A stretch of DNA of 64,000 nt from Giardia intestinalis (GCA_000002435.2 CM018791.1); one strand, 5' to 3'; numbered from the stretch's first letter, positions 22,209 to 50,826 are shown. Notes: generated by a model not told the origin, from the letters alone. Program-made: numbers and translations.

Positions 22209-22213
22209 AAATA

Positions 22214-27212: not shown

Positions 27213-29727
27213 GGCCTAAACCTGTGCATTTGGCTTGTGTCCCTGTGAATTGCACAACCTCTGGAAAGCTTATGGAGTCTTCTATTAAGCCTAGTAGCCG
27301 GTCAGTAAAGTCTGACAGGCGCTGTCTCTGCATAGAGTATGACCCGCACGTATCTGTCGAAAAGCTAAACAGCTGGGACAAGAGACTTGTAAACAGATCG
27401 ACATGCCTCCAGTACCGTTTGCTGGGCAAGGATACCTCCACGGTCCTTTCACCGTCCACTCGATGTACACTGAGATCGGAAGCCTTCACAGAGGTTCCAA
27501 TTATCATGTACCATATGCACGACGCTATTCCCGAGTAGTCCGGCTCATATAGCCAGTGCTTTTCTACTATTGGACACGGCGTCACAACAGACATGCTTGT
27601 ATAGTGAAACTGAACTGGAACGTCGTTAAGTGTGAAGAGGGATGCATCAATAGCTTTGCCAAAGTCGCATGCCACGGGTACCAGGAATCCACTTTCGTCA
27701 GCAAAGCCAAAGTCAGCTTCTAACTTTGGAGTGACGTGCTTTTCTGTCTTAGAGGAGCAGCTCTGTGTTTCGTGCTTGACGGTAGGACACGCTGCAACAC
27801 GCTGATCCACATTTGTCTTTCCCTTTTCTTCCTTGCCCTTTAGAAAGCTCAAGAGTGTGGGATCTGTAGAGATTGTGATTAGCCAGTTATCTACTTTAAT
27901 GTCTGTATGCACAATATTCGCTTCGTGGAACGTCTTTACTGTCTTGATCATCAAGTATGAAATCCATAAAATAACATTTTCAGGAAGACAAGTCAAGCCT
28001 CGCTCAACCCTGTCATAGCACTGTTTGCATAGCTCGAACAGAGTTACGCCAGGGATGTACTCCATAACAAAGGCCCCCAGGCCTTGGTTATTGACTATTG
28101 ACGCGATAAATCGCGTATAGAGGCAGTCACTCAGAGAGTCTGCCAGCCGTAGGGTGAGCGCAGATAAGCTGTATATTTCACGTAGGAAGGACGTGCTTAT
28201 TGCACAAACCGCGTGCTCGCCTATTTCAACAGAGATAGAGTCTTTTTTCCTGGTAAAGAACTTCACAGCTACTTTTACCAAATGGCCAGGCCGTGCAGAG
28301 TGCAATGCATCAGCTGCAAAGACCTTTCCAAATGCACCGGCGCCTAGAAGCTCTGTTAGTGTCAGAAGTATCTTGCAGTCTGGTCTGCTACATGAGCTTT
28401 CCTCTTCTCGCGTCAGATTCCTTTGAAGATCTTCAAATGTGGTTTCAGTGCTACCTCCTGTAGTACTATCTCCTTTAGTGTTCTGGTCTGTGTCTTCTTC
28501 ATGTCCATTCTCGTCCCAGCAAGGATCTAGCTTGGGGTACACGACTGGGCATGTAGCATCCATAATTCTAGATACCCGATAAGGGCAGATCATAAGGGTA
28601 GTTCCACTCTCAGGATTAGTAGGGAACACATCCACCTCTTCCACAAATGTCAGCACAATTCGGTTTCTTTGAAGAGATGGAGCCATGTCAACAAGGGCAA
28701 AGTAGAACGCTCGCGGAATGTGATACGGCTCTATTATGTTGCTGATGACTAGGTCATTTTGGGTTGGGCCTTGACGAGATGTATACAGGAGAATCTGGCA
28801 CCGCGGCGAAAGAGTATAGACCATGCGGGATATTATGTGGGGGTCATTCGCCAGTTGGGAGTAGGGATTCAGATTCTCCAGCTGTTTTCGTGCAATTAGG
28901 CGGCCTATAAAGCACATGTGTAGATCCAGGAGATGCTGCTCCTCGGGAGAGATAAAACTATTTGCCGTTTCACTATATGTTAGGATAAATATGGGCAGGG
29001 TCTTACAATGGATCTTTGGATGACTTGATCCTTGCCCACTTGGCTCTGACGGAGAGCTGTACGACTCGTGGTCTACATATAGCTCTGCTGGGATATTCGT
29101 TATGGAGAGGTTCTGGGGAGATGTCTCGGCTGTCCATACAAAGAATCTAGAGCCGTTGCTGGTGCTGGTGATCGCCTTGAGGCGCCGGATAGACGCCTGG
29201 AACGCCTTCTTTGCTCGAGCACTAGTGCAGTTGTTATAGCCAAGAATATAGTAGTGCATCGCTCGGCTTTTGTCACGGACCTGGAACTCATAGTAGACCC
29301 CTGCCTGACAATACAGTTCAGGAGCTTTGCGGCCGATGTTGTGCGCATCATAGTATGCAATGATGCCATCCTGGTTGGAGAATAGGCATTGGTAAGCTAG
29401 GGCGAGCACCACAACTCGTCTATCGTTTAACAGCTCCGGGTGTTTCTGGGCATAGCTTATGGTCAATCTACACAGGTCCTGGAGAAGCAGTTGGAGCGGT
29501 CTCGTGGGTCGAAGCTGGAATAGTTTCTGGATCTCAAAGAACAGCGATATCCGCTCCTGCATAGATGCCTCCACTTTTTGAGGATTGTCTAGTGTTTGAC
29601 CTGACTGTAGTCTCATGATGCGCGCCACTCCCTCCCTCAGCATCGTTATTTTTCCATCAGCAAGGCCCCGTTTCAGCTCTGGCTCTCCACTCGACGGAGC
29701 TGACTCACAGCCCAAAGCTGTCTCCAT
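27184..29727 (-). CDS. Protein kinase with a large N-terminal non-kinase region
   Basis: The kinase subdomains are present in the C-terminal half: GAGAFGKVF, VAVKF, HTDIKVDNWLI and DFGKAID. The N-terminal ~400 aa are helical and unassigned. Confidence 0.7.
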   Translation of the reverse strand: METALGCESAPSSGEPELKRGLADGKITMLREGVARIMRLQSGQTLDNPQKVEASMQERISLFFEIQKLFQLRPTRPLQLLLQDLCRLTISYAQKHPELLNDRRVVVLALAYQCLFSNQDGIIAYYDAHNIGRKAPELYCQAGVYYEFQVRDKSRAMHYYILGYNNCTSARAKKAFQASIRRLKAITSTSNGSRFFVWTAETSPQNLSITNIPAELYVDHESYSSPSEPSGQGSSHPKIHCKTLPIFILTYSETANSFISPEEQHLLDLHMCFIGRLIARKQLENLNPYSQLANDPHIISRMVYTLSPRCQILLYTSRQGPTQNDLVISNIIEPYHIPRAFYFALVDMAPSLQRNRIVLTFVEEVDVFPTNPESGTTLMICPYRVSRIMDATCPVVYPKLDPCWDENGHEEDTDQNTKGDSTTGGSTETTFEDLQRNLTREEESSCSRPDCKILLTLTELLGAGAFGKVFAADALHSARPGHLVKVAVKFFTRKKDSISVEIGEHAVCAISTSFLREIYSLSALTLRLADSLSDCLYTRFIASIVNNQGLGAFVMEYIPGVTLFELCKQCYDRVERGLTCLPENVILWISYLMIKTVKTFHEANIVHTDIKVDNWLITISTDPTLLSFLKGKEEKGKTNVDQRVAACPTVKHETQSCSSKTEKHVTPKLEADFGFADESGFLVPVACDFGKAIDASLFTLNDVPVQFHYTSMSVVTPCPIVEKHWLYEPDYSGIASCIWYMIIGTSVKASDLSVHRVDGERTVEVSLPSKRYWRHVDLFTSLLSQLFSFSTDTCGSYSMQRQRLSDFTDRLLGLIEDSISFPEVVQFTGTQAKCTGLGLAQWKRGYS

Positions 29728-29972
29728 TGCTATTATACAACCCAGGCTACAGTTTATGCTTCATCAGCATACATGCAGTAGAGTCTATGCCTTGTGCATT
29801 ACTGTCTGTAGCGCCTACTGGAACCTTTATTTCGAGAAATTCACTTTACTGGAATAGGTAAGTGGATGCGTGACCTATAGTATAGTTGTTGATGTGAGAA
29901 TGCTGCTCTGGTACTGTATCATGTTGTTAGATGACATCTCGCTTACCAGAGAACACTCCTGCTTCTTCTTCG

Positions 29973-31480
29973 TTATGATGCAATAACAGTGATGGCGACA
30001 GCAGCTATTACAATCAGTATAATTGGCACAGAGACTACCGCTGTCGTGGCGCTTTTCAACCTCTTTTCCAGTTTCTTCGATGCACTGCAGATACCATGTT
30101 CGTCTAAGCTGTACCCATCAAAGCATTTAACACATTTATCATCTTTGCATTCTCTGCAACTTATTTCATACTCATACATGCACGTACCGTAGCTTGTTAA
30201 ACAATAACATTCTTCACACTGTAAGCACCTACCGCTTCCAGAGAGAATTCTGCGCCGTTCACAAGCCTCTAAACTACAGCTCCTCACATCACTAAGGCGC
30301 GTACCTGGATTACGCTTTGTACACTATCCATTTTGACAACATTCACAATTATAATTTAGATAGCAGTCGCTGTAACCATGCGTAGGATAAGTTATCATAC
30401 AAACTCCAGGAAGACACGTAGTGCATCCAACACCATCTGCGTAAGACGCACATCTCAGAGGTGTTAGTGATATACAACCAAAAAAGGTAAAAAAACACAA
30501 TTTGCCGTGCATTTAGTACACTTCCTTCCACTGGAGCACTCAGCGCATCCTAGTGTCTCTTTACGCTCACATATTCCATAGGCAGCAAGGCAATACTCTA
30601 CTTCACACTGTGCGCAAGTTCTTTGGTCGGCGCACAACATGCAATGCAGATTTTCTTTTCCAGTACAGGCTAAAGTTCGTAGGTCAAAACAATAACCCTC
30701 ATCACACTCGGTACAATACCCTTCTCCTGCACAAAATGCACAGTGAATAGGAATGTTGACAAGTTATACACATGTTGCTCCATAAGTTGAGTTTTCTAAA
30801 TAGTAACTATCATTATATTGAATACATCTCATTTCACTCCATTGGTAGGTACAATGAGCACAAGCATCGGGACACTTAGTGCATACACCATCAGAATTTA
30901 AGCCATAGCCTGTCACGCACTCCGCACATCATGCATCCCGGACAAGATAAGCAATTCAGAGATTCCTTTAATACGTATTTTTGCTGCTGTTAAGGCAATA
31001 TCTATCCTGACATTGGGTGCATATTCCGCTATTAGGACAACGCCTACAGGATATCTTGCTTAAACGCTTACAAGTGTTGTCACTGATGAGACAGTATCCA
31101 CTTATACATTTGTACACACAATGTTTCCAGGGCAAACTTCACAGTTAAAGGATTCCCTCGCAATACCTTTTCCAGCACTGCTTTTGCATCTGTTCTCTGG
31201 ACAAGGATCCAAGGCAGAGAGTATTGACTCTCCTACTCTGAACGACAGATCTTCTTTGCAGACTCCTTGATTCATCCTGCATCCTTCCCTACATGCCATG
31301 CATCTACTTCTGGCCTACACACCGCAATGTGGTCCACACAAAGTATCGTTTTCACTATTCTCCAAAACCTATGTGCACACCCAGATACCCTCATCGTTCA
31401 TCATGGGTGTCCCCTTTGGACGTTTCTGAACACACTCTGAGTTACCAAGGAGGTCGAGAAAATAGCCATCGATACATCTA
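29973..31480 (-). pseudogene. Degenerate high-cysteine membrane protein (HCMP/VSP-like) gene broken by frameshifts and stops
   Basis: The minus strand reads Cys-rich CxxC/GYC-type peptide in shifting frames across about 1.5 kb (ORFs 31102-31299, 30324-30531, 29973-30287). The last piece ends with a single TM helix and a short tail that is not CRGKA. Confidence 0.5.
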
Positions 31481-33192
31481 AGGCAGACAGTTCCCAAAGG
31501 ATTGCAGAGCTCACAATGCGAGATATCTAGACATAGAGTCGACCTTCCAGCTGATTCGGACAGACATCAGTAACATAGTACGTGAGCAACATCAATCCAA
31601 TGGAGAACATGGTCTTTTTAATTTTGATTATACTTATTAAGAATCCAAATCAAATTAGCAAGGGCTCCGGTCAAACGTTGACACTAAAATCAATGCTCAA
31701 GCTTGTGGCCTCTCTCAGAGACTTGTGCCGGATCTGCTTCCTCCGCGGGTATAGGATCAGATATCTAGATATCCTATGTTCGTCTGCCCTATAATGCCTG
31801 TAGTGTTATAATTTATTACCGATCTACTTTGTCTGCTTGTCTAGCTGTGCTTCACAAATAGACACGGCGTTCGATAGGGATTTTTTTAACAGCGTGTCAT
31901 AATAGTCGCTACTGATTGCAATCCTACACTGTGGTGATTGTGCTTCCTTTGGTCAAATACCGTGTGTAAGAATTCTGCATTAAGGCTAAAACTATATAGT
32001 AGAGATTTCTATAAGGTTGTCTTGTACAATCCACACTCAAAGAATGAGATAGTATCAGCTTCACTTTATATCATATCCGTAGGTGTATCTGGCACCTAAG
32101 GGCTTTGAAAGACTCTTTGATTGTCAAAAATAATCATCTGACAATCACTTGACTATTGGAGCATGTAATTAGTGTAAATAGTGTATATTTCATTTTCATG
32201 ATTTGAAAGGTATTTAGAATACGTTTTAAAGCAGCAACTCTTTTAAATTAGAAAGATATTTTGCTGATTTTGGTTTGACGTATATCACGACAGTCACTCT
32301 GCTGTGCGCACTGTGAATTGCAAACCCCACAGCCTCGAAGCGTTCTGGAGACCAAAGCAGAATTACTCTCGCATTGGTAATAGGGGACCTTGGAGTCCCT
32401 ATAGTAGTAAGCTTTCCTTTCAGAAGCCATCCCTTATGTTAATTAACTGTAATCAGCTACACTATGCATGTTTCAATACTCAACTGAGTCTTCATGTATG
32501 ATCAGGTCAATCTCTGCAGTTAGATAGGCATTTAATAGCACCTGGTGTACTCTCAAGCTTTACACAATCTAATAGTTAATACCACAACATTTGTCAAGCC
32601 TGTGAAAACATTGAAGAACCCACTTTTCATAGACGCTTTTCTACAACCGTTAATGATTTGATCAATACTCACTATAACGTCCCTCTACTACTGTACACCT
32701 GCTGTAATATAAATTTAGTATGACAAAAGCTACCGATGAATGTTGTATATGAGTAGACATCCTCACTCCTTCACCACATCTTTTTTATTGGCAGAGGCTC
32801 GGTCCTTAAGTGAGAGTACTAGTCTATTTCATCCTTGTTATAGAGAAAGTGTAAGCATTATTGCAAACCCAGAGATTGTAATTGACAGGCATATACTACC
32901 TCCATGTCTGCACTCTGGATGCAACAACCACAGCGCAGCTGCATCTCCGATCATTCTGTGCACGCCTTCTGGCACGGGCAGGTGCGCCGGAGGGGGTGTA
33001 CTGCCCACCGCCGAGAAATGGATGAGCTCCTGGTCGGCCCGCCCCGCCTGGAACTTAGAGACCGCCATTCACGGCCGTGAAGAGAGTTCTCGCAAGTAAA
33101 TCTCTCGGGTTGATTCACACGGCGGGTAACCATCCGGTAGAATTCCGTATTGAATTAACTCGCTTAATTAAAAAGTTAGTATCCACGACAAT

Positions 33193-34065
33193 ATGGTGAG
33201 GCCCTGCCTGACCGTGGAAAATCAGTCAAAGGTGCTGCGCTGGCTTGCCACAGAGATCATAAACGCAATCCATCCAGAGGAGACGGTGGAGGACCTTCTT
33301 GCAAACCCGTGTCTGCTCCACTCGTACATGCTCAAAACATCCGTGGACTGGCATTGGATCTCTAACGAGGTTGGCGTGGACGAGAAGAAGGTTTCTCGTT
33401 GGTACTATGAAACGCACCTGCGCCACATCCTAACTATAAAGATGACTAACGAAGACCGTGGAGAGATTCGCAAGATTATCATCAATTGGATCCGCTGCCA
33501 GCAAGTTCCAGACGAGCGGCTTTACCAAGCAATTCATGAGAAGTTTGGAAAGAAGTACTCGCGTCAAGAGCTACGGATGACGTACTACAATATGCTTAAC
33601 AGTCGTTGCATACGGGCCGTCCTTACTGAGTGCAATATTCAGCGTCCGACAAGGCGGAGAAGGCCTCCTGAAACAGAGCGTGCAGGGCTATCTTCCTCGA
33701 CCGTCCTTCACATACCCGGGTATGCTTCCGGTCCTCAACCAGCCCCCTTAGACCATAGAAAGTTGTCCCAGTCAAGTACTCACAAGTATTCTCCAGAAGC
33801 AGCCTCTTTCTCTCAGATTGACGTCAAGGCAGAAAGTGGACTGAATAACGATATTCCAGATGAACCCGTTACCTTTAGTCCTCTTGCATTCCAGAGCATT
33901 GCCCAACAGCAACCGTACATTAAGCTACTCAATCTACAGTCAGTCCCGCTCTCCCTCGATATTAACGGCCAATTAGCATGCATCCCCCTAATCATAGTTG
34001 AGCCAGGAGCCAACATCTGGTCCATTACTCCCAATGAGGAGCCAGTGGGAGGCGCTGGACAGTAG
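33193..34065 (+). CDS. Hypothetical protein with a tandem Myb/SANT-like domain (IR-L copy)
   Basis: 290-aa ORF with two Trp-spaced repeats: DWHWISNEVGVDEKKVSRWYYETHL and INWIRCQQVPDERLYQAIHEKFGKKYSRQELRMTYYNML. These resemble W..IA..LgR...C..rW...L Myb repeats. It is followed by a basic RRRRPP stretch. Confidence 0.55.
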   Translation: MVRPCLTVENQSKVLRWLATEIINAIHPEETVEDLLANPCLLHSYMLKTSVDWHWISNEVGVDEKKVSRWYYETHLRHILTIKMTNEDRGEIRKIIINWIRCQQVPDERLYQAIHEKFGKKYSRQELRMTYYNMLNSRCIRAVLTECNIQRPTRRRRPPETERAGLSSSTVLHIPGYASGPQPAPLDHRKLSQSSTHKYSPEAASFSQIDVKAESGLNNDIPDEPVTFSPLAFQSIAQQQPYIKLLNLQSVPLSLDINGQLACIPLIIVEPGANIWSITPNEEPVGGAGQ

Positions 34066-36684
34066 CGTTCTTTGGTATTGCTCTTCTAACTCATGATAAA
34101 GGATTTGCCGCCTTTTATCTTGCAGAAGACTAGACTTATCTGTACCCCACACTTGATTGCAGATGCAGCAGGACCATGTGCAGGCCATGAAGGTCACGCA
34201 TTGACAAAGCAAACTGGAATTATTCACAGAGGTGGTTTTTGGCAAACTTGTAATCTAGTGGCACGTCATCTTTGGGCTAAGTTGCCTAACTTCTAATCGT
34301 ATATCTACGGCTTCCCTATTTACGCGGTTCTTTGCAGGAGCTAGACCTACTGAAGCATACTTAGCACATAATTCCGCAGATGAGGATACGCGATAATATT
34401 ATCAGCATCCCAATCTCATTCTTGTCAATAACGAATGTATCGATCCACAGATGCTAGTTTCTATCAGCCGAATTAGACTCGCTTAGCAGCCCGTAGAGAT
34501 GATGTAGCTCACCACCGAAGTACTTCCACATCTGCTTTTTTCCGTTTTAGACATAAAGTTGGAACTCATTATTTACCCCGTCAATGATTTTCTGCGTTCA
34601 CTGATGGGTGTATATTATTCTATATTGTCAGTTATCTAGGGACCTCTTTCATAGGAGCGCCACATCAACCCCCTTTATGTTCCTCTTACATTTTATTATG
34701 TGCTTTACATCTTCTTGTCTATCAATATTCACACCCCCATGGATATGCCAGATACATATCTGTATCATATGCTACTGTGATCATAGGTTTGTTGTAAATA
34801 AGGGTGTGATCGGTACCACCACAGAACTCGTTAAACCCTGTCTGCCTTGAGAGTACGCTAATGGGACTACATGCTCAATCTGAGCAGATGTCTGTGGGCT
34901 TGTGTGCTAGCTGGAATAAGATAGGTGACTACTCTGTATGATCATCCTGTTATCATGATTAGGTAGCCGCGAAAGATTAGACGTCATTGCAGGAGCAGAC
35001 AAGGCACTAGGACAGCGATTTGCTTTCCAAGGATGACGTGGATTAATAGGTTAGTAGGCAGTTCTTGGATGCAGGAGTATTAGTGGATTTGTAGACTCGC
35101 GTAGTTATGCATACAGGTCATGGTAGGGGCTCTGGTAATTCTCTGATGGTGGCCCACTTTGGCAAGAGCTCAGCTGGGAAAGGCAAGGCGCTGGACGAGG
35201 ACGCGGAGAAAGTTCGGCACCCCGTGTTCCCACGACGTCTCCGATCGCAGTACTGGCGGGGCCTGACGGCGCTTCTCTTCTTAATTCGGAACGAGTTAAG
35301 GAGTTTCCGCCGTAGGATGGCCGAACTGGCGGCTGAGGGAGCTGTGCGATGTGTCAGAGATTGTTAGAGATTCATACTGTATATTGTGCAATGGCTAACG
35401 TGTATGGGTGTCCCACCGAAGACCCGGTGAAGGATGGCACCGGAGATGAGACAGGATGACCCCTGGTGGAGGAGACCACGGTGCGGGCTTGCCTGCAGAT
35501 GCCGTGGCTAAAATCTCAGCCCGTCCAGGAATCTAACAGAGATTATGCAGCCGGACACTGGGACCTACCGGAGAGCCGCATCGCCCCTGCACGAGCCAGC
35601 AAGCACTGCCTTCGACCCGACCACAGTTGGGAACGCTCATGTCCGTGGATGCCGTCGGTCAGGTCCCTGAAGACCACCCTGCTCACAGCCCCAGGGATCC
35701 CTCTGCAGACTCTGATTTCTATATCCCTGGGGTAGATGTTTGCGGATAGCGGCACAGGGCTCAGCAGAACCGCCAGAAGATCCGCAGCACACTGTCATTA
35801 ACTATAAACGTCTTGCGGTATTCATTCCATGGCTAAGCCACCAATAATGGCACTGGAACTGGAGTAAGACACTTCTAGGGTGCGACTACAGGACCGTGGA
35901 GGAGCTTCCTTCCCACGAAGGAGACCCTGCAGCTAGGGCGTGGTCCATCAACGCTTAGAACTGCACACCTTGGTAGAAGCAGAGCCAAGCCCACACTTAG
36001 AAATCGATGGCTGCCCTCTTGGACCCCGCACATGGTAATAGCTATAGAAAAGAGCTTGGGCAAGGAGATCACGCGGACCAGGTGTACCCGGACTGAGAAG
36101 CGTCTACTTCATCAAGTAACGGTAACCGGTCTATGCACACAGACCATGTTTGGCGGCAAGCTCCCCTGTAGCTCATGTATACACTGCGAACCGCTGCCTA
36201 GAGGCTTGCGTTGGAGATGCTGCAAGACACTAATGGTTGAAAGGTGTGACTAGCCGTTCTTCTAGATATCGTCTCTTTGGATGCGCCGGGTACCTAAGGC
36301 GATAGTCCAGCGCTGCACGCCTTGACTGCCACGGGCCTTGTGCATAGCCGACCAGGTGCCCGACACACGCCGCTTGGGAGTGCCCAGACCACACGGTGCC
36401 GTAATCGGGCTGCTAAGGTGCGAGAGATGGTGCACAGAGGCGCATATCAGAGCCAAGAGTCTGTGTGTCGCCTGCCTCTGGGTGGAATAGTTGTACAATA
36501 GTAGGGGGTGCTCATTGCCATACAGAAGCGGGCACGGCAAAACATGGAGGCGCGGTCCTACCGCAGGATTCGACGGATGCTCGGAGACAGGTGGTCCAAC
36601 GGTTTTATGGAATGACGGCGCAACGGCCATGGAGTGGGCAGGTGCAATAGGCGATGCGTTTACTACCTAAGTACACAGCTAAGT

Positions 36685-36726
36685 CTACGCCTTCCCCCTG
36701 CACAGGAACCACCAGCAGAGGAAGCC
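36685..36726 (-). pseudogene. Orphan VSP 3' fragment (…GFLCWWFLCRGKA, stop and poly(A) signal) at the inner end of IR-L
   Basis: The minus strand encodes the invariant VSP tail and the downstream ACTTAGGTAGTAAAC motif. Upstream of the arm boundary the sequence is not VSP-like. Confidence 0.75.
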
Positions 36727-36987
36727 GACGAGCACAGTGACAGCAATGTACAGGAATGCATCCCGAACAATCATTCCACAAGAGAGGTGCGGTCTGAGTC
36801 TAGCCTCAACTGGTCCTATTTCTATGGAAGTCAGGAGGAACTGCACTGTCAGCTGGCCTCCGGTGGGCGTACTCCTATCTCGTCCTTCTCCAGTCCAACT
36901 GATCAAGGAGAGTAAGAGCGGCTGTCTCTTACTGCTCGCGGTAACACATCAGCCTGACGGAAGAGCAGTGGCATACGAACCCGGCTA

Positions 36988-39804
36988 ATGTTGGTAGGAT
37001 TTCTCTTAGTTTTTGTGGTAACACAGGCCAACTGCGCACAAGAGCTGACCCAGGCAGGCTGCAAGACGTGTGTCGGGGCAGACGCCGCCCAGACGTGTAC
37101 GGAGTGCACAACTTCTGGACACAAGGTACAGCTCGATAAAAGAAGCTGCGGCCCCACCTGCCCGGCGCACTCCACGGCCAGCTCGAACGTCTGCGAGTGC
37201 GACCAGGGATACACGCCCAACGCCGGGAAGACCGCGTGCGAGCCCAATCCCAGCGCGGGATGCGCACAAGAGCTGACCCAGGCAGGCTGCAAGACGTGTG
37301 TCGGGGCAGACGCCGCCCAGACGTGTACGGAGTGCACAACTTCTGGACACAAGGTACAGCTCGATAAAAGAAGCTGCGGCCCCACCTGCCCGGCGCACTC
37401 CACGGCCAGCTCGAACGTCTGCGAGTGCGACCAGGGATACACGCCCAACGCCGGGAAGACCGCGTGCGAGCCCAATCCCAGCGCGGGATGCGCACAAGAG
37501 CTGACCCAGGCAGGCTGCAAGACGTGTGTCGGGGCAGACGCCGCCCAGACGTGTACGGAGTGCACAACTTCTGGACACAAGGTACAGCTCGATAAAAGAA
37601 GCTGCGGCCCCACCTGCCCGGCGCACTCCACGGCCAGCTCGAACGTCTGCGAGTGCGACCAGGGATACACGCCCAACGCCGGGAAGACCGCGTGCGAGCC
37701 CAATCCCAGCGCGGGATGCGCACAAGAGCTGACCCAGGCAGGCTGCAAGACGTGTGTCGGGGCAGACGCCGCCCAGACGTGTACGGAGTGCACAACTTCT
37801 GGACACAAGGTACAGCTCGATAAAAGAAGCTGCGGCCCCACCTGCCCGGCGCACTCCACGGCCAGCTCGAACGTCTGCGAGTGCGACCAGGGATACACGC
37901 CCAACGCCGGGAAGACCGCGTGCGAGCCCAATCCCAGCGCGGGATGCGCACAAGAGCTGACCCAGGCAGGCTGCAAGACGTGTGTCGGGGCAGACGCCGC
38001 CCAGACGTGTACGGAGTGCACAACTTCTGGACACAAGGTACAGCTCGATAAAAGAAGCTGCGGCCCCACCTGCCCGGCGCACTCCACGGCCAGCTCGAAC
38101 GTCTGCGAGTGCGACCAGGGATACACGCCCAACGCCGGGAAGACCGCGTGCGAGCCCAATCCCAGCGCGGGATGCGCACAAGAGCTGACCCAGGCAGGCT
38201 GCAAGACGTGTGTCGGGGCAGACGCCGCCCAGACGTGTACGGAGTGCACAACTTCTGGACACAAGGTACAGCTCGATAAAAGAAGCTGCGGCCCCACCTG
38301 CCCGGCGCACTCCACGGCCAGCTCGAACGTCTGCGAGTGCGACCAGGGATACACGCCCAACGCCGGGAAGACCGCGTGCGAGCCCAATCCCAGCGCGGGA
38401 TGCGCACAAGAGCTGACCCAGGCAGGCTGCAAGACGTGTGTCGGGGCAGACGCCGCCCAGACGTGTACGGAGTGCACAACTTCTGGACACAAGGTACAGC
38501 TCGATAAAAGAAGCTGCGGCCCCACCTGCCCGGCGCACTCCACGGCCAGCTCGAACGTCTGCGAGTGCGACCAGGGATACACGCCCAACGCCGGGAAGAC
38601 CGCGTGCGAGCCCAATCCCAGCGCGGGATGCGCACAAGAGCTGACCCAGGCAGGCTGCAAGACGTGTGTCGGGGCAGACGCCGCCCAGACGTGTACGGAG
38701 TGCACAACTTCTGGACACAAGGTACAGCTCGATAAAAGAAGCTGCGGCCCCACCTGCCCGGCGCACTCCACGGCCAGCTCGAACGTCTGCGAGTGCGACC
38801 AGGGATACACGCCCAACGCCGGGAAGACCGCGTGCGAGGTGGCCTCTAACACGCAGTGTAATACTCCCAACTGCAAGATCTGTGATAACCCCAAAACAGA
38901 CAATGAAATCTGCACTGAATGTAATGACGGCGACTACCTCACTCCAACAAAGCAGTGTACGCAAAGCTGCGGAGCAATAGGAAGCTACTACAACGGAGAC
39001 AAAGTGTGCGAGCCCTGTAATCCTAGCTGTGCTGCGTGCACCACAAAGGGACCAGCGAAGTGCACGCTGTGTCCTCCCGGGAAGAGGCTCCAGTACACAG
39101 ATGAGAACAGTCCATCAAGCGGTACTTGCGTAGATGAGTGCAAGCCCCAGAGTGGAGCTAGCGGATGCGAGACCTGCGGAGCCACCATCGGAGGGACAAA
39201 GTATTGCTCGAAGTGCAGCACATCCACGGAGGTCCCCGTCAACGGAGTCTGTACAGCAGACAATGCCCGCGCGCCCGTATGCTCGAAAAAGGACAATCAG
39301 GGAGGGTGCACTACGTGTGCCAGTGGGTACTTCCGCCAGGACAACGGCTGCTATAAGACTGACAGACAGCCAGGCAAACAGATATGTACACTAGCTGATA
39401 GCAATGGTGGATGTCAGGCGTGTGCCAATGGTCTTCCTCCTAGTTCTTCTGACGTATGCCCCTCGTGTCATTTCACCTGCAAGACATGCTCGACCGCAGA
39501 CACTGCAAATACTTGTACAACGTGTGCAACTGGGTACTATATGGTCGGATCAGCAGCTGGACCATGCACTTCGTGTGACAGCAACAGTGGAAGTGTCAAG
39601 GGAGTTGCTGGCTGCATGAGCTGCGCTCCTCCATCTAATAATCAAGGCTCCGTCCTTTGCTACCTCATAAAGGATACCGGTAGCACCAACAGGAGCGGCC
39701 TCTCCACGGGGGCCATCGTGGGGATCTTCGTCGCAGTCATCGTTGTTGTGGGGGGCCTTGTGGGCTTCCTCTGCTGGTGGTTCCTGTGCAGGGGGAAGGC
39801 GTAG
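36988..39804 (+). CDS. vsp: Variant-specific surface protein (VSP) with a signal peptide, about 8 identical 76-aa Cys-rich repeats, a unique CxxC-rich region, a TM helix and a CRGKA tail
   Basis: The N-terminal signal is MLVGFLLVFVVTQANC. There are abundant CxxC and GGC motifs. The C-terminus is GLVGFLCWWFLCRGKA followed by a stop, then ACTTAGGTAGTAAAC 13 nt later. Confidence 0.92.
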   Translation: MLVGFLLVFVVTQANCAQELTQAGCKTCVGADAAQTCTECTTSGHKVQLDKRSCGPTCPAHSTASSNVCECDQGYTPNAGKTACEPNPSAGCAQELTQAGCKTCVGADAAQTCTECTTSGHKVQLDKRSCGPTCPAHSTASSNVCECDQGYTPNAGKTACEPNPSAGCAQELTQAGCKTCVGADAAQTCTECTTSGHKVQLDKRSCGPTCPAHSTASSNVCECDQGYTPNAGKTACEPNPSAGCAQELTQAGCKTCVGADAAQTCTECTTSGHKVQLDKRSCGPTCPAHSTASSNVCECDQGYTPNAGKTACEPNPSAGCAQELTQAGCKTCVGADAAQTCTECTTSGHKVQLDKRSCGPTCPAHSTASSNVCECDQGYTPNAGKTACEPNPSAGCAQELTQAGCKTCVGADAAQTCTECTTSGHKVQLDKRSCGPTCPAHSTASSNVCECDQGYTPNAGKTACEPNPSAGCAQELTQAGCKTCVGADAAQTCTECTTSGHKVQLDKRSCGPTCPAHSTASSNVCECDQGYTPNAGKTACEPNPSAGCAQELTQAGCKTCVGADAAQTCTECTTSGHKVQLDKRSCGPTCPAHSTASSNVCECDQGYTPNAGKTACEVASNTQCNTPNCKICDNPKTDNEICTECNDGDYLTPTKQCTQSCGAIGSYYNGDKVCEPCNPSCAACTTKGPAKCTLCPPGKRLQYTDENSPSSGTCVDECKPQSGASGCETCGATIGGTKYCSKCSTSTEVPVNGVCTADNARAPVCSKKDNQGGCTTCASGYFRQDNGCYKTDRQPGKQICTLADSNGGCQACANGLPPSSSDVCPSCHFTCKTCSTADTANTCTTCATGYYMVGSAAGPCTSCDSNSGSVKGVAGCMSCAPPSNNQGSVLCYLIKDTGSTNRSGLSTGAIVGIFVAVIVVVGGLVGFLCWWFLCRGKA
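37033..38836 (+). repeat. Tandem array of 7.9 perfect copies of a 228-bp in-frame repeat inside the VSP
   Basis: Period 228 nt. The copies are nucleotide-identical; alternate-frame ORFs are identical in every unit. The last unit diverges at about 38837. Confidence 0.9.
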
Positions 39805-39816
39805 ACTTAGCTGTGT

Positions 39817-39831
39817 ACTTAGGTAGTAAAC
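39817..39831 (+). terminator. Conserved VSP 3' element / polyadenylation signal ACTTAGGTAGTAAAC (contains AGTAAAC)
   Basis: Seen directly 13 nt after the VSP stop codon. The same sequence follows the orphan VSP tail in IR-L on the opposite strand. Confidence 0.7.
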
Positions 39832-42423
39832 GCATCGCCTATTGCACCTGCCCACTCCATGGCCGTTGCGCCGTCATTCCATAAAACCGTTGGACCACCT
39901 GTCTCCGAGCATCCGTCGAATCCTGCGGTAGGACCGCGCCTCCATGTTTTGCCGTGCCCGCTTCTGTATGGCAATGAGCACCCCCTACTATTGTACAACT
40001 ATTCCACCCAGAGGCAGGCGACACACAGACTCTTGGCTCTGATATGCGCCTCTGTGCACCATCTCTCGCACCTTAGCAGCCCGATTACGGCACCGTGTGG
40101 TCTGGGCACTCCCAAGCGGCGTGTGTCGGGCACCTGGTCGGCTATGCACAAGGCCCGTGGCAGTCAAGGCGTGCAGCGCTGGACTATCGCCTTAGGTACC
40201 CGGCGCATCCAAAGAGACGATATCTAGAAGAACGGCTAGTCACACCTTTCAACCATTAGTGTCTTGCAGCATCTCCAACGCAAGCCTCTAGGCAGCGGTT
40301 CGCAGTGTATACATGAGCTACAGGGGAGCTTGCCGCCAAACATGGTCTGTGTGCATAGACCGGTTACCGTTACTTGATGAAGTAGACGCTTCTCAGTCCG
40401 GGTACACCTGGTCCGCGTGATCTCCTTGCCCAAGCTCTTTTCTATAGCTATTACCATGTGCGGGGTCCAAGAGGGCAGCCATCGATTTCTAAGTGTGGGC
40501 TTGGCTCTGCTTCTACCAAGGTGTGCAGTTCTAAGCGTTGATGGACCACGCCCTAGCTGCAGGATCTCCTTCGTGGGAAGGAAGCTCCTCCACGGTCCTG
40601 TAGTCGCACCCTAGAAGTGTCTTACTCCAGTTCCAGTGCCATTATTGGTGGCTTAGCCATGGAATGAATACCGCAAGACGTTTATAGTTAATGACAGTGT
40701 GCTGCGGATCTTCTGGCGGTTCTGCTGAGCCCTGTGCCGCTATCCGCAAACATCTACCCCAGGGATATAGAAATCAGAGTCTGCAGAGGGATCCCTGGGG
40801 CTGTGAGCAGGGTGGTCTTCAGGGACCTGACCGACGGCATCCACGGACATGAGCGTTCCCAACTGTGGTCGGGTCGAAGGCAGTGCTTGCTGGCTCGTGC
40901 AGGGGCGATGCGGCTCTCCGGTAGGTCCCAGTGTCCGGCTGCATAATCTCTGTTAGATTCCTGGACGGGCTGAGATTTTAGCCACGGCATCTGCAGGCAA
41001 GCCCGCACCGTGGTCTCCTCCACCAGGGGTCATCCTGTCTCATCTCCGGTGCCATCCTTCACCGGGTCTTCGGTGGGACACCCATACACGTTAGCCATTG
41101 CACAATATACAGTATGAATCTCTAACAATCTCTGACACATCGCACAGCTCCCTCAGCCGCCAGTTCGGCCATCCTACGGCGGAAACTCCTTAACTCGTTC
41201 CGAATTAAGAAGAGAAGCGCCGTCAGGCCCCGCCAGTACTGCGATCGGAGACGTCGTGGGAACACGGGGTGCCGAACTTTCTCCGCGTCCTCGTCCAGCG
41301 CCTTGCCTTTCCCAGCTGAGCTCTTGCCAAAGTGGGCCACCATCAGAGAATTACCAGAGCCCCTACCATGACCTGTATGCATAACTACGCGAGTCTACAA
41401 ATCCACTAATACTCCTGCATCCAAGAACTGCCTACTAACCTATTAATCCACGTCATCCTTGGAAAGCAAATCGCTGTCCTAGTGCCTTGTCTGCTCCTGC
41501 AATGACGTCTAATCTTTCGCGGCTACCTAATCATGATAACAGGATGATCATACAGAGTAGTCACCTATCTTATTCCAGCTAGCACACAAGCCCACAGACA
41601 TCTGCTCAGATTGAGCATGTAGTCCCATTAGCGTACTCTCAAGGCAGACAGGGTTTAACGAGTTCTGTGGTGGTACCGATCACACCCTTATTTACAACAA
41701 ACCTATGATCACAGTAGCATATGATACAGATATGTATCTGGCATATCCATGGGGGTGTGAATATTGATAGACAAGAAGATGTAAAGCACATAATAAAATG
41801 TAAGAGGAACATAAAGGGGGTTGATGTGGCGCTCCTATGAAAGAGGTCCCTAGATAACTGACAATATAGAATAATATACACCCATCAGTGAACGCAGAAA
41901 ATCATTGACGGGGTAAATAATGAGTTCCAACTTTATGTCTAAAACGGAAAAAAGCAGATGTGGAAGTACTTCGGTGGTGAGCTACATCATCTCTACGGGC
42001 TGCTAAGCGAGTCTAATTCGGCTGATAGAAACTAGCATCTGTGGATCGATACATTCGTTATTGACAAGAATGAGATTGGGATGCTGATAATATTATCGCG
42101 TATCCTCATCTGCGGAATTATGTGCTAAGTATGCTTCAGTAGGTCTAGCTCCTGCAAAGAACCGCGTAAATAGGGAAGCCGTAGATATACGATTAGAAGT
42201 TAGGCAACTTAGCCCAAAGATGACGTGCCACTAGATTACAAGTTTGCCAAAAACCACCTCTGTGAATAATTCCAGTTTGCTTTGTCAATGCGTGACCTTC
42301 ATGGCCTGCACATGGTCCTGCTGCATCTGCAATCAAGTGTGGGGTACAGATAAGTCTAGTCTTCTGCAAGATAAAAGGCGGCAAATCCTTTATCATGAGT
42401 TAGAAGAGCAATACCAAAGAACG

Positions 42424-43296
42424 CTACTGTCCAGCGCCTCCCACTGGCTCCTCATTGGGAGTAATGGACCAGATGTTGGCTCCTGGCTCAACTATGATTA
42501 GGGGGATGCATGCTAATTGGCCGTTAATATCGAGGGAGAGCGGGACTGACTGTAGATTGAGTAGCTTAATGTACGGTTGCTGTTGGGCAATGCTCTGGAA
42601 TGCAAGAGGACTAAAGGTAACGGGTTCATCTGGAATATCGTTATTCAGTCCACTTTCTGCCTTGACGTCAATCTGAGAGAAAGAGGCTGCTTCTGGAGAA
42701 TACTTGTGAGTACTTGACTGGGACAACTTTCTATGGTCTAAGGGGGCTGGTTGAGGACCGGAAGCATACCCGGGTATGTGAAGGACGGTCGAGGAAGATA
42801 GCCCTGCACGCTCTGTTTCAGGAGGCCTTCTCCGCCTTGTCGGACGCTGAATATTGCACTCAGTAAGGACGGCCCGTATGCAACGACTGTTAAGCATATT
42901 GTAGTACGTCATCCGTAGCTCTTGACGCGAGTACTTCTTTCCAAACTTCTCATGAATTGCTTGGTAAAGCCGCTCGTCTGGAACTTGCTGGCAGCGGATC
43001 CAATTGATGATAATCTTGCGAATCTCTCCACGGTCTTCGTTAGTCATCTTTATAGTTAGGATGTGGCGCAGGTGCGTTTCATAGTACCAACGAGAAACCT
43101 TCTTCTCGTCCACGCCAACCTCGTTAGAGATCCAATGCCAGTCCACGGATGTTTTGAGCATGTACGAGTGGAGCAGACACGGGTTTGCAAGAAGGTCCTC
43201 CACCGTCTCCTCTGGATGGATTGCGTTTATGATCTCTGTGGCAAGCCAGCGCAGCACCTTTGACTGATTTTCCACGGTCAGGCAGGGCCTCACCAT
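42424..43296 (-). CDS. Hypothetical tandem Myb/SANT-like protein (IR-R copy, identical 290 aa)
   Basis: The translation is identical to that of 33193-34065. Confidence 0.55.
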   Translation of the reverse strand: MVRPCLTVENQSKVLRWLATEIINAIHPEETVEDLLANPCLLHSYMLKTSVDWHWISNEVGVDEKKVSRWYYETHLRHILTIKMTNEDRGEIRKIIINWIRCQQVPDERLYQAIHEKFGKKYSRQELRMTYYNMLNSRCIRAVLTECNIQRPTRRRRPPETERAGLSSSTVLHIPGYASGPQPAPLDHRKLSQSSTHKYSPEAASFSQIDVKAESGLNNDIPDEPVTFSPLAFQSIAQQQPYIKLLNLQSVPLSLDINGQLACIPLIIVEPGANIWSITPNEEPVGGAGQ

Positions 43297-44039
43297 ATTG
43301 TCGTGGATACTAACTTTTTAATTAAGCGAGTTAATTCAATACGGAATTCTACCGGATGGTTACCCGCCGTGTGAATCAACCCGAGAGATTTACTTGCGAG
43401 AACTCTCTTCACGGCCGTGAATGGCGGTCTCTAAGTTCCAGGCGGGGCGGGCCGACCAGGAGCTCATCCATTTCTCGGCGGTGGGCAGTACACCCCCTCC
43501 GGCGCACCTGCCCGTGCCAGAAGGCGTGCACAGAATGATCGGAGATGCAGCTGCGCTGTGGTTGTTGCATCCAGAGTGCAGACATGGAGGTAGTATATGC
43601 CTGCCAAGACAGCACACGACTTCCCTACAGCTCCTTGGCGTGTCGGCGCGTGAAGACAGAGGGCCAGCCAGGGTGAATGTCGTGGCCGGCCAGCTGCACA
43701 TCAGCTTTAGCTCACGGCCCAGAGAGCATTCAGTCGCCTGTTACCGGACGGGCCTGTCTGGTAGATCGTTGGCCCAGACCGCGGTGTTCGAGTCGTCTGG
43801 GCACATGGGAGAGCCCTGCCTTCGTCTGCTGTGTGTGGTCTCTTCAACGATGCGCAGAATGTGGGTTGCGCGACATCCAGACCGTCGCAGCCTGCGTCTG
43901 GTGGGCCCTGCGCTGTGCCGTGGTTGAGCATGCTACACGCTCTAGACATGACGGTCTCGTCACTGACCAGGCTCCGGCCATTAGCTGCTCCTACCGACCA
44001 CTCTTCGCCAACCACCAAGCAAGCCGGGGTCTCCAGTCC

Positions 44040-44849
44040 TCAACCCTTACTGGGGCTCGCATCAGCGCACCCAGGCACGCCTCCGTAGCCCGCAGGGGGG
44101 AAGCATGGCACGCATGCGAATGCAACGGGCGACCCGAGGAGACCCTGGCCCGTCTGGAGCGGGAGGACGCCAGGCCCAGGAACGACCCCGGGCGGGAGGG
44201 CGAGGACGAGGCACCCCGGCGCGTGCGGGGGCAGAAGCGCAGAGACCGCGCCCGGGGCCACAAAGACCGGCCCCCCGACGGGCGGCACCAGCGGAGGCGC
44301 GGCGCAACCAAGAACGCAGGGGGGCGGGGGAGAGGCCGCCACAGGAGATGCCCCCTCCTCCTGCTTGGCCGCCCTCGGGCCGTATGTGCGGCGCGGCAGC
44401 ACCACCCCGTGCTCCTCCAGGGCGGCGCGGACGTCCTGGGTGCGGAGCGCGTTGTTGTACGTCATCCGCAGCTCCTGGCGCGGATACTTCGCCCCGAAGC
44501 GCTCGTGGACCCTGCGGTAGAAGTCCGGGCCCAGGATGCTCCGGTCCCTGACCCCGGCGATGATCATCGCCTTGATGGCCCTGCGGTCCTCGCCAGTCAT
44601 CTTCACGTTGAGGATGCTCCGCGAGTGCGTCTCGCGGTACCAGTGGTAGATCCTGCTCCGGTCCTCGGACAGGGCGCGGGCGATCTTCTTCCAGTCGATG
44701 GCCGTCCGGAGCACGTGCCGGTGGAGGAGCAGCGGCCGCCGCGCGAGGCTCTCGGCCGTCTCCCCCAGCCGCCGGGCAGCGACGACCTGCTTCGCGAGCT
44801 CGAGCAGAACGGAGGCGCGCGTCTCCGCCGTCATTGCCCCAGAGCCCAT
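44040..44849 (-). CDS. Diverged, GC-rich paralog of the IR-borne Myb/SANT-like protein
   Basis: 269 aa. Alignable blocks include LLHRHVLRTAIDWKKIARALSEDRSRIYHWYRETHSRSILNVKMTGEDRRAIKAMII and ...FGAKYPRQELRMTYNNALRTQDVRAAL, against the 290-aa protein. It lies in a GC-rich segment. Confidence 0.55.
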   Translation of the reverse strand: MGSGAMTAETRASVLLELAKQVVAARRLGETAESLARRPLLLHRHVLRTAIDWKKIARALSEDRSRIYHWYRETHSRSILNVKMTGEDRRAIKAMIIAGVRDRSILGPDFYRRVHERFGAKYPRQELRMTYNNALRTQDVRAALEEHGVVLPRRTYGPRAAKQEEGASPVAASPPPPCVLGCAAPPLVPPVGGPVFVAPGAVSALLPPHAPGCLVLALPPGVVPGPGVLPLQTGQGLLGSPVAFACVPCFPPAGYGGVPGCADASPSKG

Positions 44850-46260
44850 CCGATAGAAGCAGCGATAAAACTAAAAACAGACCAACGAATAATGTGAAAT
44901 TAAATATGTACAGGCCTTGCACAAAAGTTTTAGCGGGTGTTTGTTGCCTGCCTGCCCCGGTCCGTCGGGCGAGCAGGGCGCCCTCACCCGGGCCATCGCC
45001 GCAGTACGAGCTGGCTTAGGCCGCCACACAGAACAGACCGCTTTGCACACGGCGGCGTCGGGGTTGATGTATTGATCGGAGTTTTTTGGTATTGCCGGGA
45101 ACCCCCGCCCTCGGCCACCAGGGAGAGCCGCACTCTGCGCAGCCCCGGTTTGTCTGCATATGCCCAGAGCTCTGCGGAGGCGGGCAGGCTGGGACCGTCC
45201 TCCTCGTTCGGGGCATCGCCGACGACGAGCTGTTGCCTGCGGCCCGCGGGGTCTTCCGCTCTGAGAGGGGCCACCGAGTGTCGTGGGCCGCAGCGCTCTG
45301 CAAGGCCTGCACACGACCAGAGGCTGCCAAGTTTTTTGAGCAACTGGCTCTGGCGCGGATTCTGCGGACACCTGCTGCCGGCCCAGTCTACAGGGGCGCC
45401 CGCGTGTCTACTGTGGCCTGGCGTGCGTTTCTGCGCGTCCTCCTGCGGCGGCTCCCCTCGTGGCGCAGGAAGCCCTGCCTGTCCTCTCCCACCGGGTTCT
45501 CCCGACGTGCTCTCCACCGCACCCAGCCGAGGTTCCAGCGGACAAAGGAGCGGCATGACCCAATCAGTCGCCAGATTACATTGTGCTCTGGAGCTGCGAA
45601 TCTTGCTGGCATCTCATGCGACAGTGGCTCTGGGTGTGCCCGCTCAGCAGCAGCTACCTCATCCACAGAGTGCTGATGCAGATATTATGCGCTACGTATC
45701 AGTGACCACAAGGGCACCGATAGACAGGGTCTCAGCCTCAGTGCACAGCCAAGGTTGCCAAGCATAGCGAGGCTTACATACTGAGCATGGGTCCGTGCCC
45801 CGCGTGGTCTTCTTAAGAACTAGTGCATGAGTGCTCGTGAGACGACGCCCCATATGAGGCGGGCTATCCGTTGTACGCGAAGCACAGCACAGCAGAAGTG
45901 GGTGATGCAGGGACCAGAGGGGGTGCTTCAGCACATCAGTCGTCGGCCCCTCTGCCTTCTGTCGCGCCTGATGGACTCTCCTCTATTATCGCAACTCGGT
46001 CGCGGTTGTCTGAGGAGAGGACTAGGTACTCAGCAGACAATGGAATCGCGTGGCCTGGACGCGATTTCGTGATGGCCAACATGGGTTATCAGGCTGGCTG
46101 TGGTCTGGATATGTGGTACAGCTTCCTTCACTCAAGCAGGTACGTAGCATTTTCACTGGTGTATATTGCACAGCCCCTTGGCACCTGTACCCGAGGCCAA
46201 CACCGCACCAGCTTTCTGATCGCTAGGACTGCCCGGGTGCGGACAAGGTGCTTCGTTCAC

Positions 46261-50818: not shown

Positions 50819-50826
50819 GCCATTGA

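Follow-up and report, generated by a model that had tools for sequence, protein, structure and literature searches.

A palindrome with a single VSP gene in its spacer in Giardia intestinalis WB

Inverted VSP duplications in Giardia have been called "interesting, but cryptic" since 1991. In strain WB, 14 inverted identical vsp pairs, e.g. vsp1267, were described, with spacers of 2190-3847 bp (Adam et al. 2010, PMC2996952), and 19-20 pairs are given in Xu et al. 2020 (PMC7000408) and Rodriguez-Walker et al. 2022. The locus described here resembles these pairs in its near-identical inverted copies, in their abrupt divergence at sharp edges, in a spacer (3036 nt) that falls within the published range, and in that both short-read and Sanger contigs are broken there. 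It differs from them in what the parts consist of. The published pairs have VSP genes as arms and a non-coding spacer with pseudogene or retroelement relics. Here a single VSP gene lies in the spacer, each arm consists of 3.8 kb of non-VSP DNA, and no more of the VSP than its last 42 nt is duplicated. Instead of two identical VSP ORFs placed head-to-head or tail-to-tail, an intact VSP and a relic are found in the window (the whole 64,000-nt stretch analysed, from a chromosome of WB-C6). The usual layout is turned inside out, with the VSP in the spacer and housekeeping genes, for 5S rRNA and for a Myb-like nuclear factor, in the arms. The palindrome is a real, unreported variant of the Giardia VSP-linked inverted duplications, and we think it probable that this is a segmental palindrome whose loop of about 3 kb is a slot for one VSP.

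Three other systems have a comparable geometry. The human Y palindromes P1-P8 have a unique, kb-scale spacer and arms that are about 99.97% identical through intrachromosomal gene conversion. The WB locus shares with them the large inverted arms, the unique spacer and a higher arm similarity within than between species. The Y palindromes differ in arm length (9 kb to 1.45 Mb), carry other genes and have no antigen gene in the spacer. The plastid inverted repeat (IR) has rRNA genes in conversion-homogenised arms around an invertible single-copy segment, and when it expands into a gene at its border, a truncated copy such as psi-ycf1 or rps19 is left behind. The Giardia locus likewise has rRNA genes in the arms, and an orphan VSP tail at one arm resembles the truncated border duplicates. 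Unlike the plastid IR, it lies on a nuclear chromosome and its loop is only 3 kb; flip-flop isomers, known for plastids, are a prediction for the Giardia locus.

Invertons (Hin, Gin, and those of Bacteroides and Mycoplasma) also place a surface-antigen gene between inverted repeats; the geometry of the WB locus would likewise permit inversion. Their repeats are tens of bp long, a dedicated site-specific recombinase acts on them, and the flip connects or disconnects a promoter. The WB locus does not belong to this class: the arms are 3841 nt long, the arm protein is Myb/SANT-like, and no Pfam match to a recombinase was found among the arm and flank ORFs. The VSP would move together with its own upstream region, and a flip of the loop would therefore change nothing in cis.

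Layout of the palindrome

A repeat search of the 64-kb window gave an inverted pair at 32882-36732 and 39757-43607. The features of the locus, with arm limits from base-by-base comparison, are as follows (window coordinates).

32886-36726: left arm, 3841 nt, from comparison with the right arm
33193-34065, plus strand: GL50803_00116968, left copy, 290 aa
35209-35328, minus strand: 5S rRNA gene of the left arm (RF00001, full length)
35925: sole arm-to-arm difference, C where the partner position 40564, reverse-complemented, has T
36685-36786, minus strand: orphan VSP 3' relic, from ORF and PF03302 alignment
36727-39762: loop, 3036 nt, unique, consisting of a 261-nt VSP upstream region and the VSP body
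36988-39804, plus strand: intact VSP gene, 938 aa (PF03302 match, E 8e-94)
37033-38838, plus strand: tandem array in the VSP, 7.9 copies of 228 bp at 100% identity, encoding 76-aa repeats
39763-43603: right arm, 3841 nt, reverse complement of the left arm
41161-41280, plus strand: 5S rRNA gene of the right arm (RF00001)
42424-43296, minus strand: GL50803_00116968, right copy, protein identical to the left copy
44040-44849, minus strand: GL50803_0061066, GC-rich diverged paralog of GL50803_00116968

The first-pass annotation of this DNA had proposed two 3841-bp arms around a 3036-bp unique segment, with one mismatch between the arms, and all of these figures were reproduced exactly. It had also named substantial divergence between the arms as grounds for rejection; compared base by base, they differ at only 1 of 3841 positions (99.97% identity). 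Similarity drops off abruptly beyond both ends, so that the inner and outer edges are sharp, and the pair is the only inverted repeat of at least 40 nt in the 64-kb window. A 3.8-kb repeat at this identity cannot have arisen by chance.

The loop gene is an intact VSP with its upstream region, as claimed earlier: the 938-aa ORF is preceded by 261 nt of loop sequence. Its product has 120 Cys (12.8%) and 30 CXXC motifs, and its C-terminus consists of a TM segment followed by the CRGKA tail (ending ...GGLVGFLCWWFLCRGKA). The Cys-rich ectodomain, CXXC motifs, TM segment and CRGKA tail place it in PF03302. The N-terminus, MLVGFLLVFVVTQANC, is signal-peptide-like by appearance. The start context is cTAATGTTg, the initiator-like pattern sought being T/CAATGTT, and an AGTAAA lies at 39825, 21 nt past the stop. 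The stop codon is at 39802-39804 and the right arm starts at 39763, which confirms the earlier placement of the inner boundary 39 nt before the stop. The arm thus takes in the final 42 nt of the ORF, about the last 14 codons with the stop. An exact-protein look-up of the loop VSP, a 195-aa ORF and the orphan ORF matched no record. The loop VSP was not matched to any published vsp number; repeat-number arithmetic alone suggests vsp173 / GL50803_98058 (TR228) as a candidate.

The arms do carry the conserved VSP 3' signal, as had been noted, but they are not mere VSP flank, since each also has a 5S rRNA gene and a gene for a nuclear protein. The first-pass annotation had mentioned neither of these genes, nor the tandem array in the VSP. 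Both 5S genes score 88.3 bits against a gathering score of 38 and cover model positions 1-120 of 120. Two of the ten 5S rRNA genes of WB sit in the palindrome, and the left-arm gene is 96% identical to its ortholog in strain P15 (assemblage E), which is found in the same place. The protein-coding arm gene, GL50803_00116968 (KAE8302796 and KAE8302798; XP_001706333 and XP_001704500 in the Sanger annotation), encodes a conserved nuclear protein that is specific to diplomonads and has a Myb/SANT-like fold in its N-terminal domain.

The paralog GL50803_0061066 is located 437 nt beyond the right arm and points the same way as the copy of the arm gene in that arm; its identity to the arm gene is 42% over 149 aa (E 6e-41). 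It belongs to a dispersed, multi-copy family with at least seven WB members at 90% identity or more, and its P15 ortholog is located at a contig end.

Support for the duplication

The palindrome would be an assembly artefact if the PacBio consensus were chimeric or palindromic, or if its loop were misoriented. Short-read assemblies do not bridge the arms: among the Logan short-read contigs none spans the palindrome. Contigs end at the multi-copy 5S gene (about 35237), the contig covering 35392-36716 (L020) halts at the multi-copy VSP tail, and to the right of the palindrome contigs stop at about 46951. The left inner and right outer junctions had no match in metagenome contig scans; these two and the right inner junction are seen in the PacBio assembly alone, which is also the source of the loop orientation in WB.

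Several observations stand against an artefact. In the PacBio annotation the accessions run from the kinase (KAE8302795) to the arm gene (KAE8302796), the number ending in 797, the arm gene again (KAE8302798), the paralog (KAE8302799) and SEY1 (KAE8302800). The independent 2007 Sanger assembly also has two arm-gene accessions in two flank contexts, XP_001706333 numbered near the kinase (XP_001706330) and XP_001704500 near SEY1 (XP_001704505). In both annotations the second arm-gene accession falls between the loop and SEY1/RHD3. The arm-gene copy of strain DH (A2), ESU36015, is numbered near RHD3 (ESU36018), whereas the P15 and assemblage B copies adjoin the kinase. Two Logan contigs from independent samples (L011 and L012) span the left outer junction at 100% identity, and L012 stops at 32915, equal to the edge plus k-1. 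An analogous repeat is present on a single P15 contig, and its arms must be distinct copies because they differ at 16 of 611 aligned positions. The WB assembly itself is backed by 200x PacBio coverage and optical maps (PMC7000408). We consider an artefact very unlikely, with a probability close to nil.

The syntenic locus in assemblage E and the history of the palindrome

A comparison of the syntenic locus in other assemblages had been proposed as a check. The P15 genome matches the window in a single 17.9-kb HSP over 17171-35074, which passes through the left outer edge at 32886. At the syntenic site P15 has an inverted repeat of its own (positions 1-612 and 3185-3795 of its contig, L031; 97.4% identical, with a sharp inner edge), the second arm being compared over 612 nt. 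The repeat is thus seen in assemblages A (WB) and E (P15), but the VSP, its orientation and the arm edges differ. The P15 loop is about 2572 nt long and holds a VSP that shares just 27% identity with the one in the WB loop and is not orthologous to it in sequence. The P15 arm edges are separated from the VSP by 177 nt on the side of the stop and by 183 nt on the side of the ATG, and the inner edges differ between the two strains by about 283 nt. The 3' end of the VSP faces the kinase-side arm in P15 and the SEY1-side arm in WB.

It should be noted that the P15 kinase contig runs 75 kb beyond the repeat and that the P15 SEY1/RHD3 gene is on another contig, so that synteny with P15 is established on the kinase side. 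In the 90% protein cluster the arm gene has no second copy from P15, and the repeat in P15 may accordingly be much shorter than that of WB. The kinase-side and SEY1-side contigs of assemblage B have no reverse-complementary ends in common. P15 collinearity had suggested an ancestral left arm and a derived right arm; we dropped this polarity, as P15 has both arms. Proof of loop inversion from gene identity was likewise ruled out by the 27% identity of the two VSPs.

Based on the WB and P15 sequences, the history that we favour, and hold to be rather more probable than its opposite, is that of an old segmental palindrome, homogenised by conversion, with a loop able to flip. The palindrome would be older than the A/E split, and arm-to-arm gene conversion (concerted evolution) would keep the arms near identical in each genome. 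Homologous recombination between the arms would flip the loop; each flip would swap the arm that completes the VSP gene and leave the protein unchanged. The loop VSP itself would have been exchanged over evolution. The earlier proposal of an invertible cassette is plausible, given that the VSP in the P15 loop runs in the reverse direction with respect to the unique flanks that the two genomes share. The WB arm divergence (1/3841, or 0.026%) is similar to the allelic heterozygosity of 0.03% in WB (PMC7000408), and WB nanopore reads predicted 162 intra-isolate inversions (PMC7048089). The gene IDs of this locus were not found in the nanopore SV supplementary tables.

The arms are far closer within each genome (99.97% in WB, 97.4% in P15) than between WB and P15, where the non-coding arm sequence is about 55-75% identical. 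Recent independent duplications would explain identical arms in each lineage just as well as concerted evolution does, and arm identity would then reflect youth and not conversion. Inverted duplications with 2.2-3.8-kb spacers recur across the WB genome, and the loops of WB (3036 nt) and P15 (about 2572 nt) are within the known spacer range. The offset of about 283 nt between the WB and P15 inner edges, and the lack of a second P15 arm-gene copy on record, also agree with separate events. On the other hand, two events would be needed at one site, with edges about 0.3 kb apart and a VSP in both loops, and a decayed relic (about 35-50% identity) beside a perfect 3841 nt is hard to obtain from a single young duplication. 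We therefore regard independent duplications in WB and P15, by the process that gave rise to the roughly 20 inverted VSP pairs, as rather unlikely.

A stronger version of the flipping-loop history is improbable in our view. In this version the locus would be a conserved VSP slot that has been actively flipping since before the A/E split, the loop being a preferred landing site for VSP cassettes, and orientation or hairpin transcripts (pan-VSP tail, 3' UTR) would feed into the control of VSP expression. If it were true, the approximately 20 cryptic inverted VSP pairs with 2-4-kb spacers would have been produced by the same machinery.

The locus can be compared across assemblages, unlike the published pairs; the arms are apparently kept and the sequence and orientation of the loop VSP differ. 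It is a test case for repeat homogenisation by gene conversion in Giardia, for the flipping of such palindromes, and for the conserved VSP 3' end as a crossover site in VSP cassette exchange. Such exchange is a proposed and poorly documented route of repertoire evolution.

The orphan VSP tail and its possible roles

The left arm had been said to carry no more of a VSP than an orphan tail, and this holds: the relic is about 50-66 nt long and there is no complete VSP ORF. Positions 36685-36726, inside the arm, are identical to the tail of the live VSP. The next 24 nt (36727-36750) are VSP-like yet divergent, with other codon variants than the loop VSP, so that 14 identical codons are followed by about 8 that are recognisably VSP-derived. 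The Pfam alignment of the orphan reaches 36786, where nucleotide identity is near random; identity of the relic beyond the edge is about 35-50%. The orphan tail closes a 73-codon ORF (36685-36906, minus strand), of which residues 41-73 align to positions 364-397 of 397 in the PF03302 profile (32.5 bits, cutoff 31.4). The remainder is not VSP-like, and the upstream part of this ORF has no CXXC motif. Over the 24 nt past the edge the orphan matches the P15 VSP at 16 positions and the WB loop VSP at 12. Only 5 of 127,954 24-mers in the window score as high.

On the evidence of these 24 nt we read the identity edge as the place where one VSP 3' end gives way to another, because the orphan there resembles the P15 VSP more than the WB loop VSP. 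In WB, the 3' crossover of a VSP exchange, or of a gene conversion involving two VSP 3' ends in inverted orientation, may have fallen inside the pan-VSP tail. The zone of perfect identity would for that reason stop 42 nt before the ORF end, leaving a decayed VSP 3' relic at the other arm. As the crossover would have fallen in the pan-VSP tail, the orphan is best seen as a by-product and not a device, by analogy with truncated genes at chloroplast IR borders.

The WB layout (arm, second tail, upstream region, VSP, tail, arm) could also derive from that of P15 in one event. In a P15-like ancestor the loop would have been inverted by way of nicks staggered over the 3' end of the VSP. An inverted second copy of the last 42 nt and of about 240 nt of 3' flank would have resulted, lengthening the repeat inward and producing the orphan tail in one step and with no second VSP. 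Such a break would account for the opposite loop orientation. It predicts, however, that VSP sequence ends at the identity edge, whereas 24 more nt are VSP-like and have codon variants absent from the loop VSP. We judge a staggered break to be unlikely.

The first-pass annotation had attributed the whole geometry to rearrangement through the shared 3' ends of two VSP genes. This stands for the edge, where there is homology and the orphan is VSP-derived for 24 nt beyond it. It probably does not stand for the palindrome as such. Only the position of the WB edge is tail-related, because the edges of the P15 inverted repeat fall outside its VSP, and as judged from these edges a rearrangement of two VSP tails is probably not how the palindrome arose.

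An antisense or RNAi role had also been proposed, in which plus-strand RNA antisense to the pan-VSP tail would feed RNAi/miRNA silencing; a read-through transcript folded arm on arm would be another possible source. The plus strand of 36685-36726 does run antisense to sequence that VSP genes have in common, and RNAi/miRNA control of VSPs has been published (e.g. PMC3937270). Against such a device, 2.6 kb separate the orphan from the end of the nearest plus-strand gene upstream, P15 retained the palindrome without the orphan tail, and the WB genome already has about 200-208 VSP pseudogenes or fragments (PMC7000408). A literature string search with the antisense tail sequence gave no match and no small-RNA evidence. 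The proposed role was pure inference and we do not retain it; a regulatory device of this kind is highly improbable. Nothing in these results shows that antigen switching is regulated by the palindrome, and on present evidence the locus has no bearing on the mechanism of switching itself.

Palindromes with kb-scale spacers are expected to be stable, as is established from work in yeast and bacteria. The earlier suggestion of a cruciform or replication-fragile site presupposes little or no spacer; with the 3036-nt spacer found here, such behaviour is unlikely.

Structure and gene content of the palindrome

A repeat search over the whole window found a single long inverted repeat, the two arms of the palindrome. 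The features of the region are as follows (window coordinates).

Features of the palindrome and its surroundings
29875-31605, minus strand, WB counterpart of a 578-aa gene of strain P15 (assemblage E)
32886-36726, left arm, 3841 nt, from base-by-base comparison
33193-34065, plus strand, GL50803_00116968, left copy, 290 aa
35209-35328, minus strand, complete 5S rRNA gene, left arm (88 bits, gathering score 38)
36685-36906, minus strand, 73-codon ORF ending in the orphan VSP tail
36727-39762, loop, 3036 nt
36988-39804, plus strand, intact VSP ORF, 938 aa
39763-43603, right arm, 3841 nt, from base-by-base comparison
41161-41280, plus strand, complete 5S rRNA gene, right arm (88 bits, gathering score 38)
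42424-43296, minus strand, GL50803_00116968, right copy, 290 aa
44040-44849, minus strand, GL50803_0061066, GC-rich third paralog of GL50803_00116968 (42% identity), just beyond the right arm

Compared base by base, the arms show one difference (35925/40564) in 3841 nt. The near-identity reported in the first-pass annotation is thereby confirmed, and its figures for arms, loop, VSP and stop-codon distance were all correct. On the inner side 6 further bases match partially; past both ends similarity is at chance level. Cruciform extrusion or fragility, also proposed there, is unlikely with a 3-kb spacer, by what is established about palindromes in general.

The arms are more than flanks of a VSP gene. 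They include the conserved VSP 3' end, and each also contains a 5S rRNA gene and the 290-aa gene. WB is reported to have 10 5S genes, two of which are thus in the arms. Approximately 35-60 nt 5' of the 5S gene appear to be common to other 5S loci, since short-read contigs resume only at 35392. GL50803_00116968 shares 84-95% nucleotide identity with its P15 ortholog, the adjacent non-coding DNA 55-75%, and its relatives within Giardia are as low as 44% identical. Its protein is assigned to nuclei in a 2026 localisation atlas (PMC13322205). Just within the outer end of the arm, an 84-nt stretch (32944-33027) without Rfam match is 74% similar to positions 12095-12177 of sequence L014, which lie on the downstream side of the paralog in isolate DH (A2). 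Logan contigs often begin or end at 33001-33025 rather than at the arm edge, 32886; a short repeated element or an RNA gene missing from the annotation could be the reason.

The loop VSP matches Pfam PF03302 (E 8e-94) and has 30 CXXC motifs and 12.8% Cys. Its start context is TAATGTT, an AGTAAA signal lies 21 nt past the stop codon, and the right arm starts 39 nt upstream of that stop. Within it a 228-bp unit is repeated 7.9 times without a mismatch (37033-38838, 100% identical). The 2010 catalogue (PMC2996952) gives just 2-4 copies for its three TR228 vsp genes, a difference compatible with repeats having been collapsed in the older assembly or with a variable copy number. By arithmetic only, the loop VSP is possibly vsp173 (GL50803_98058).

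Surroundings and support for the assembly

The window belongs to the G. intestinalis WB-C6 PacBio reference (200x, HGAP3, optical maps; PMC7000408). Protein accessions run consecutively as kinase (the left flank marker), arm gene, one entry, arm gene, paralog and SEY1/RHD3 (the right flank marker). In the 2007 Sanger assembly an identical 290-aa protein was entered twice, numbered once near the kinase and once near SEY1, confirming two arm copies rather than one. The DH copy is numbered near RHD3, and in P15 and assemblage B a copy adjoins the kinase. Contigs assembled from short reads of unrelated samples run across the left outer junction (100% identity), and one of them stops exactly k-1 bases beyond the edge.

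Elsewhere, short-read contigs break off in the 5S gene and in the VSP tail, both of them multi-copy, and on the right of the palindrome at approximately 46951, past the dispersed GC-rich repeat. Short reads are unable to bridge the arms, and the PacBio assembly is therefore the sole source for the left inner and right outer junctions and for the orientation of the loop; neither junction had a match in two metagenome contig scans. That the palindrome is an assembly artefact is nevertheless hardly credible, given two arm-gene entries with different neighbours in the independent Sanger assembly and the left outer junction in unrelated samples.

The block right of the palindrome (approximately 43604-46950) has 65% GC and contains GL50803_0061066, which has at least seven dispersed WB copies at ≥90% identity and is therefore a dispersed repeat. 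Every short-read contig extending from SEY1/RHD3 ends at 46951-46988 in assemblage A; in assemblage B the ends lie upstream of RHD3 by approximately 600 nt. To the left, the counterpart of the 578-aa gene, intact in P15, is broken into at least four reading-frame segments (54-71% identity) and has no annotated protein accession, the kinase (KAE8302795) and the arm gene (KAE8302796) being consecutive; it therefore looks like a pseudogene. The kinase-to-palindrome interval is approximately 2 kb shorter in assemblage B.

The inner edge and the P15 locus

The 73-codon ORF ends in a mirror copy of the last 42 nt of the VSP, and its residues 41-73 align to the final 34 positions of the Pfam VSP model (32.5 bits, cutoff 31.4). 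The 24 nt immediately upstream of the identity edge match the P15 VSP at 16/24 and the WB loop VSP at 12/24, the two live genes matching each other at 19/24; only 5 of 127,954 24-mers of the window score ≥16. One instance is CTC GTC, common to the orphan and P15, against CTT GTG in the WB loop VSP. Farther upstream, identity is at chance level. Since these 24 nt are still VSP-like, VSP-derived DNA continues past the edge. Judged from sequence, the edge would mark the switch from one VSP 3' end to a different one. The first, inside the homogenised arm and common to the live gene, would for that reason have stayed perfect; the second has decayed. A one-step staggered-break inversion, duplicating the VSP 3' end, is contradicted by the VSP-like bases past the edge and is improbable.

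The P15 contig with the kinase ortholog matches the window over a single 17.9-kb HSP (84% identity), unbroken across the left outer edge. In window orientation its order is kinase (-), 578-aa gene, arm-gene ortholog (+), 5S (-) and full-length VSP (-). The WB left arm is laid out in the same way, except that P15 has a complete VSP in place of the orphan tail. An inverted repeat is present in P15 too: positions 1-612 of contig L031 (ACVC01000096.1), from an arm of at least 612 nt, pair with 3185-3795 (97.4% identity); the inner edge is sharp, and the VSP lies in a loop of approximately 2.57 kb. Its arm edges lie 177 nt past the VSP stop and 183 nt ahead of the ATG, outside the VSP, and P15 thus has no orphan tail. 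The suggested rearrangement between two VSP 3' ends hence agrees with the WB edge, but not with the P15 palindrome. The two loop VSPs are 27% identical, unrelated outside the family tail, and oppositely oriented relative to the unique flanks.

The first 118 codons of the annotated P15 VSP (L031 441-3008, 855 aa) seem to be a spurious extension at the N-terminus; codon 119 begins a typical VSP signal peptide, MLFAVLYLALGTLA. L031 runs approximately 75 kb past the second arm, and SEY1/RHD3 is on another contig (L036, ACVC01000237.1), collinear with window 44382-60837 and ending within the GC-rich paralog. Either synteny is truly broken here in P15, or repeats have caused a misjoin or a break in its assembly.

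An antisense or RNAi role of the orphan tail, as first proposed, is very unlikely: no transcript evidence for it was found, P15 retains the palindrome without the tail, and WB has approximately 208 pseudo-VSPs (PMC7000408).

Origin and known systems

Divergence of the WB arms (0.026%) is approximately equal to WB allelic heterozygosity (0.03%; PMC7000408). We consider it probable that the palindrome is old, that arm-to-arm gene conversion homogenises its arms, that arm-to-arm recombination can flip the loop, and that the loop VSP has been swapped in the course of evolution, an exchange or conversion in WB having had its 3' crossover within the pan-VSP tail. Separate recent duplications, one per lineage, seem unlikely. 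The first-pass observation thus holds and its interpretation only in part.

Inverted identical vsp pairs with spacers of 2.2-3.8 kb were first known from vsp1267; 14 pairs were catalogued (PMC2996952) and later 19-20 (PMC7000408; bioRxiv 10.1101/2022.03.07.483299). Spacer size and sharp edges are alike, but those pairs are defined by two identical VSP ORFs, which this locus lacks. In the searchable literature we found no account of a single VSP looped in a 5S-bearing palindrome, or of conservation of such a palindrome in P15. By analogy, it may work like the conversion-maintained palindromes of Y-chromosome or plastid type. It is not an inverton, because it has neither short repeats nor a recombinase and the VSP keeps its own upstream region. 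We found no evidence that the palindrome controls antigenic variation; it merits attention for loop orientation and comparison across assemblages.

Two members of the GL50803_0061066 family, GL50803_0060974 and d60974 (KAE8302586 and KAE8302588), likewise bracket one single gene, and may be another palindrome of the same type.
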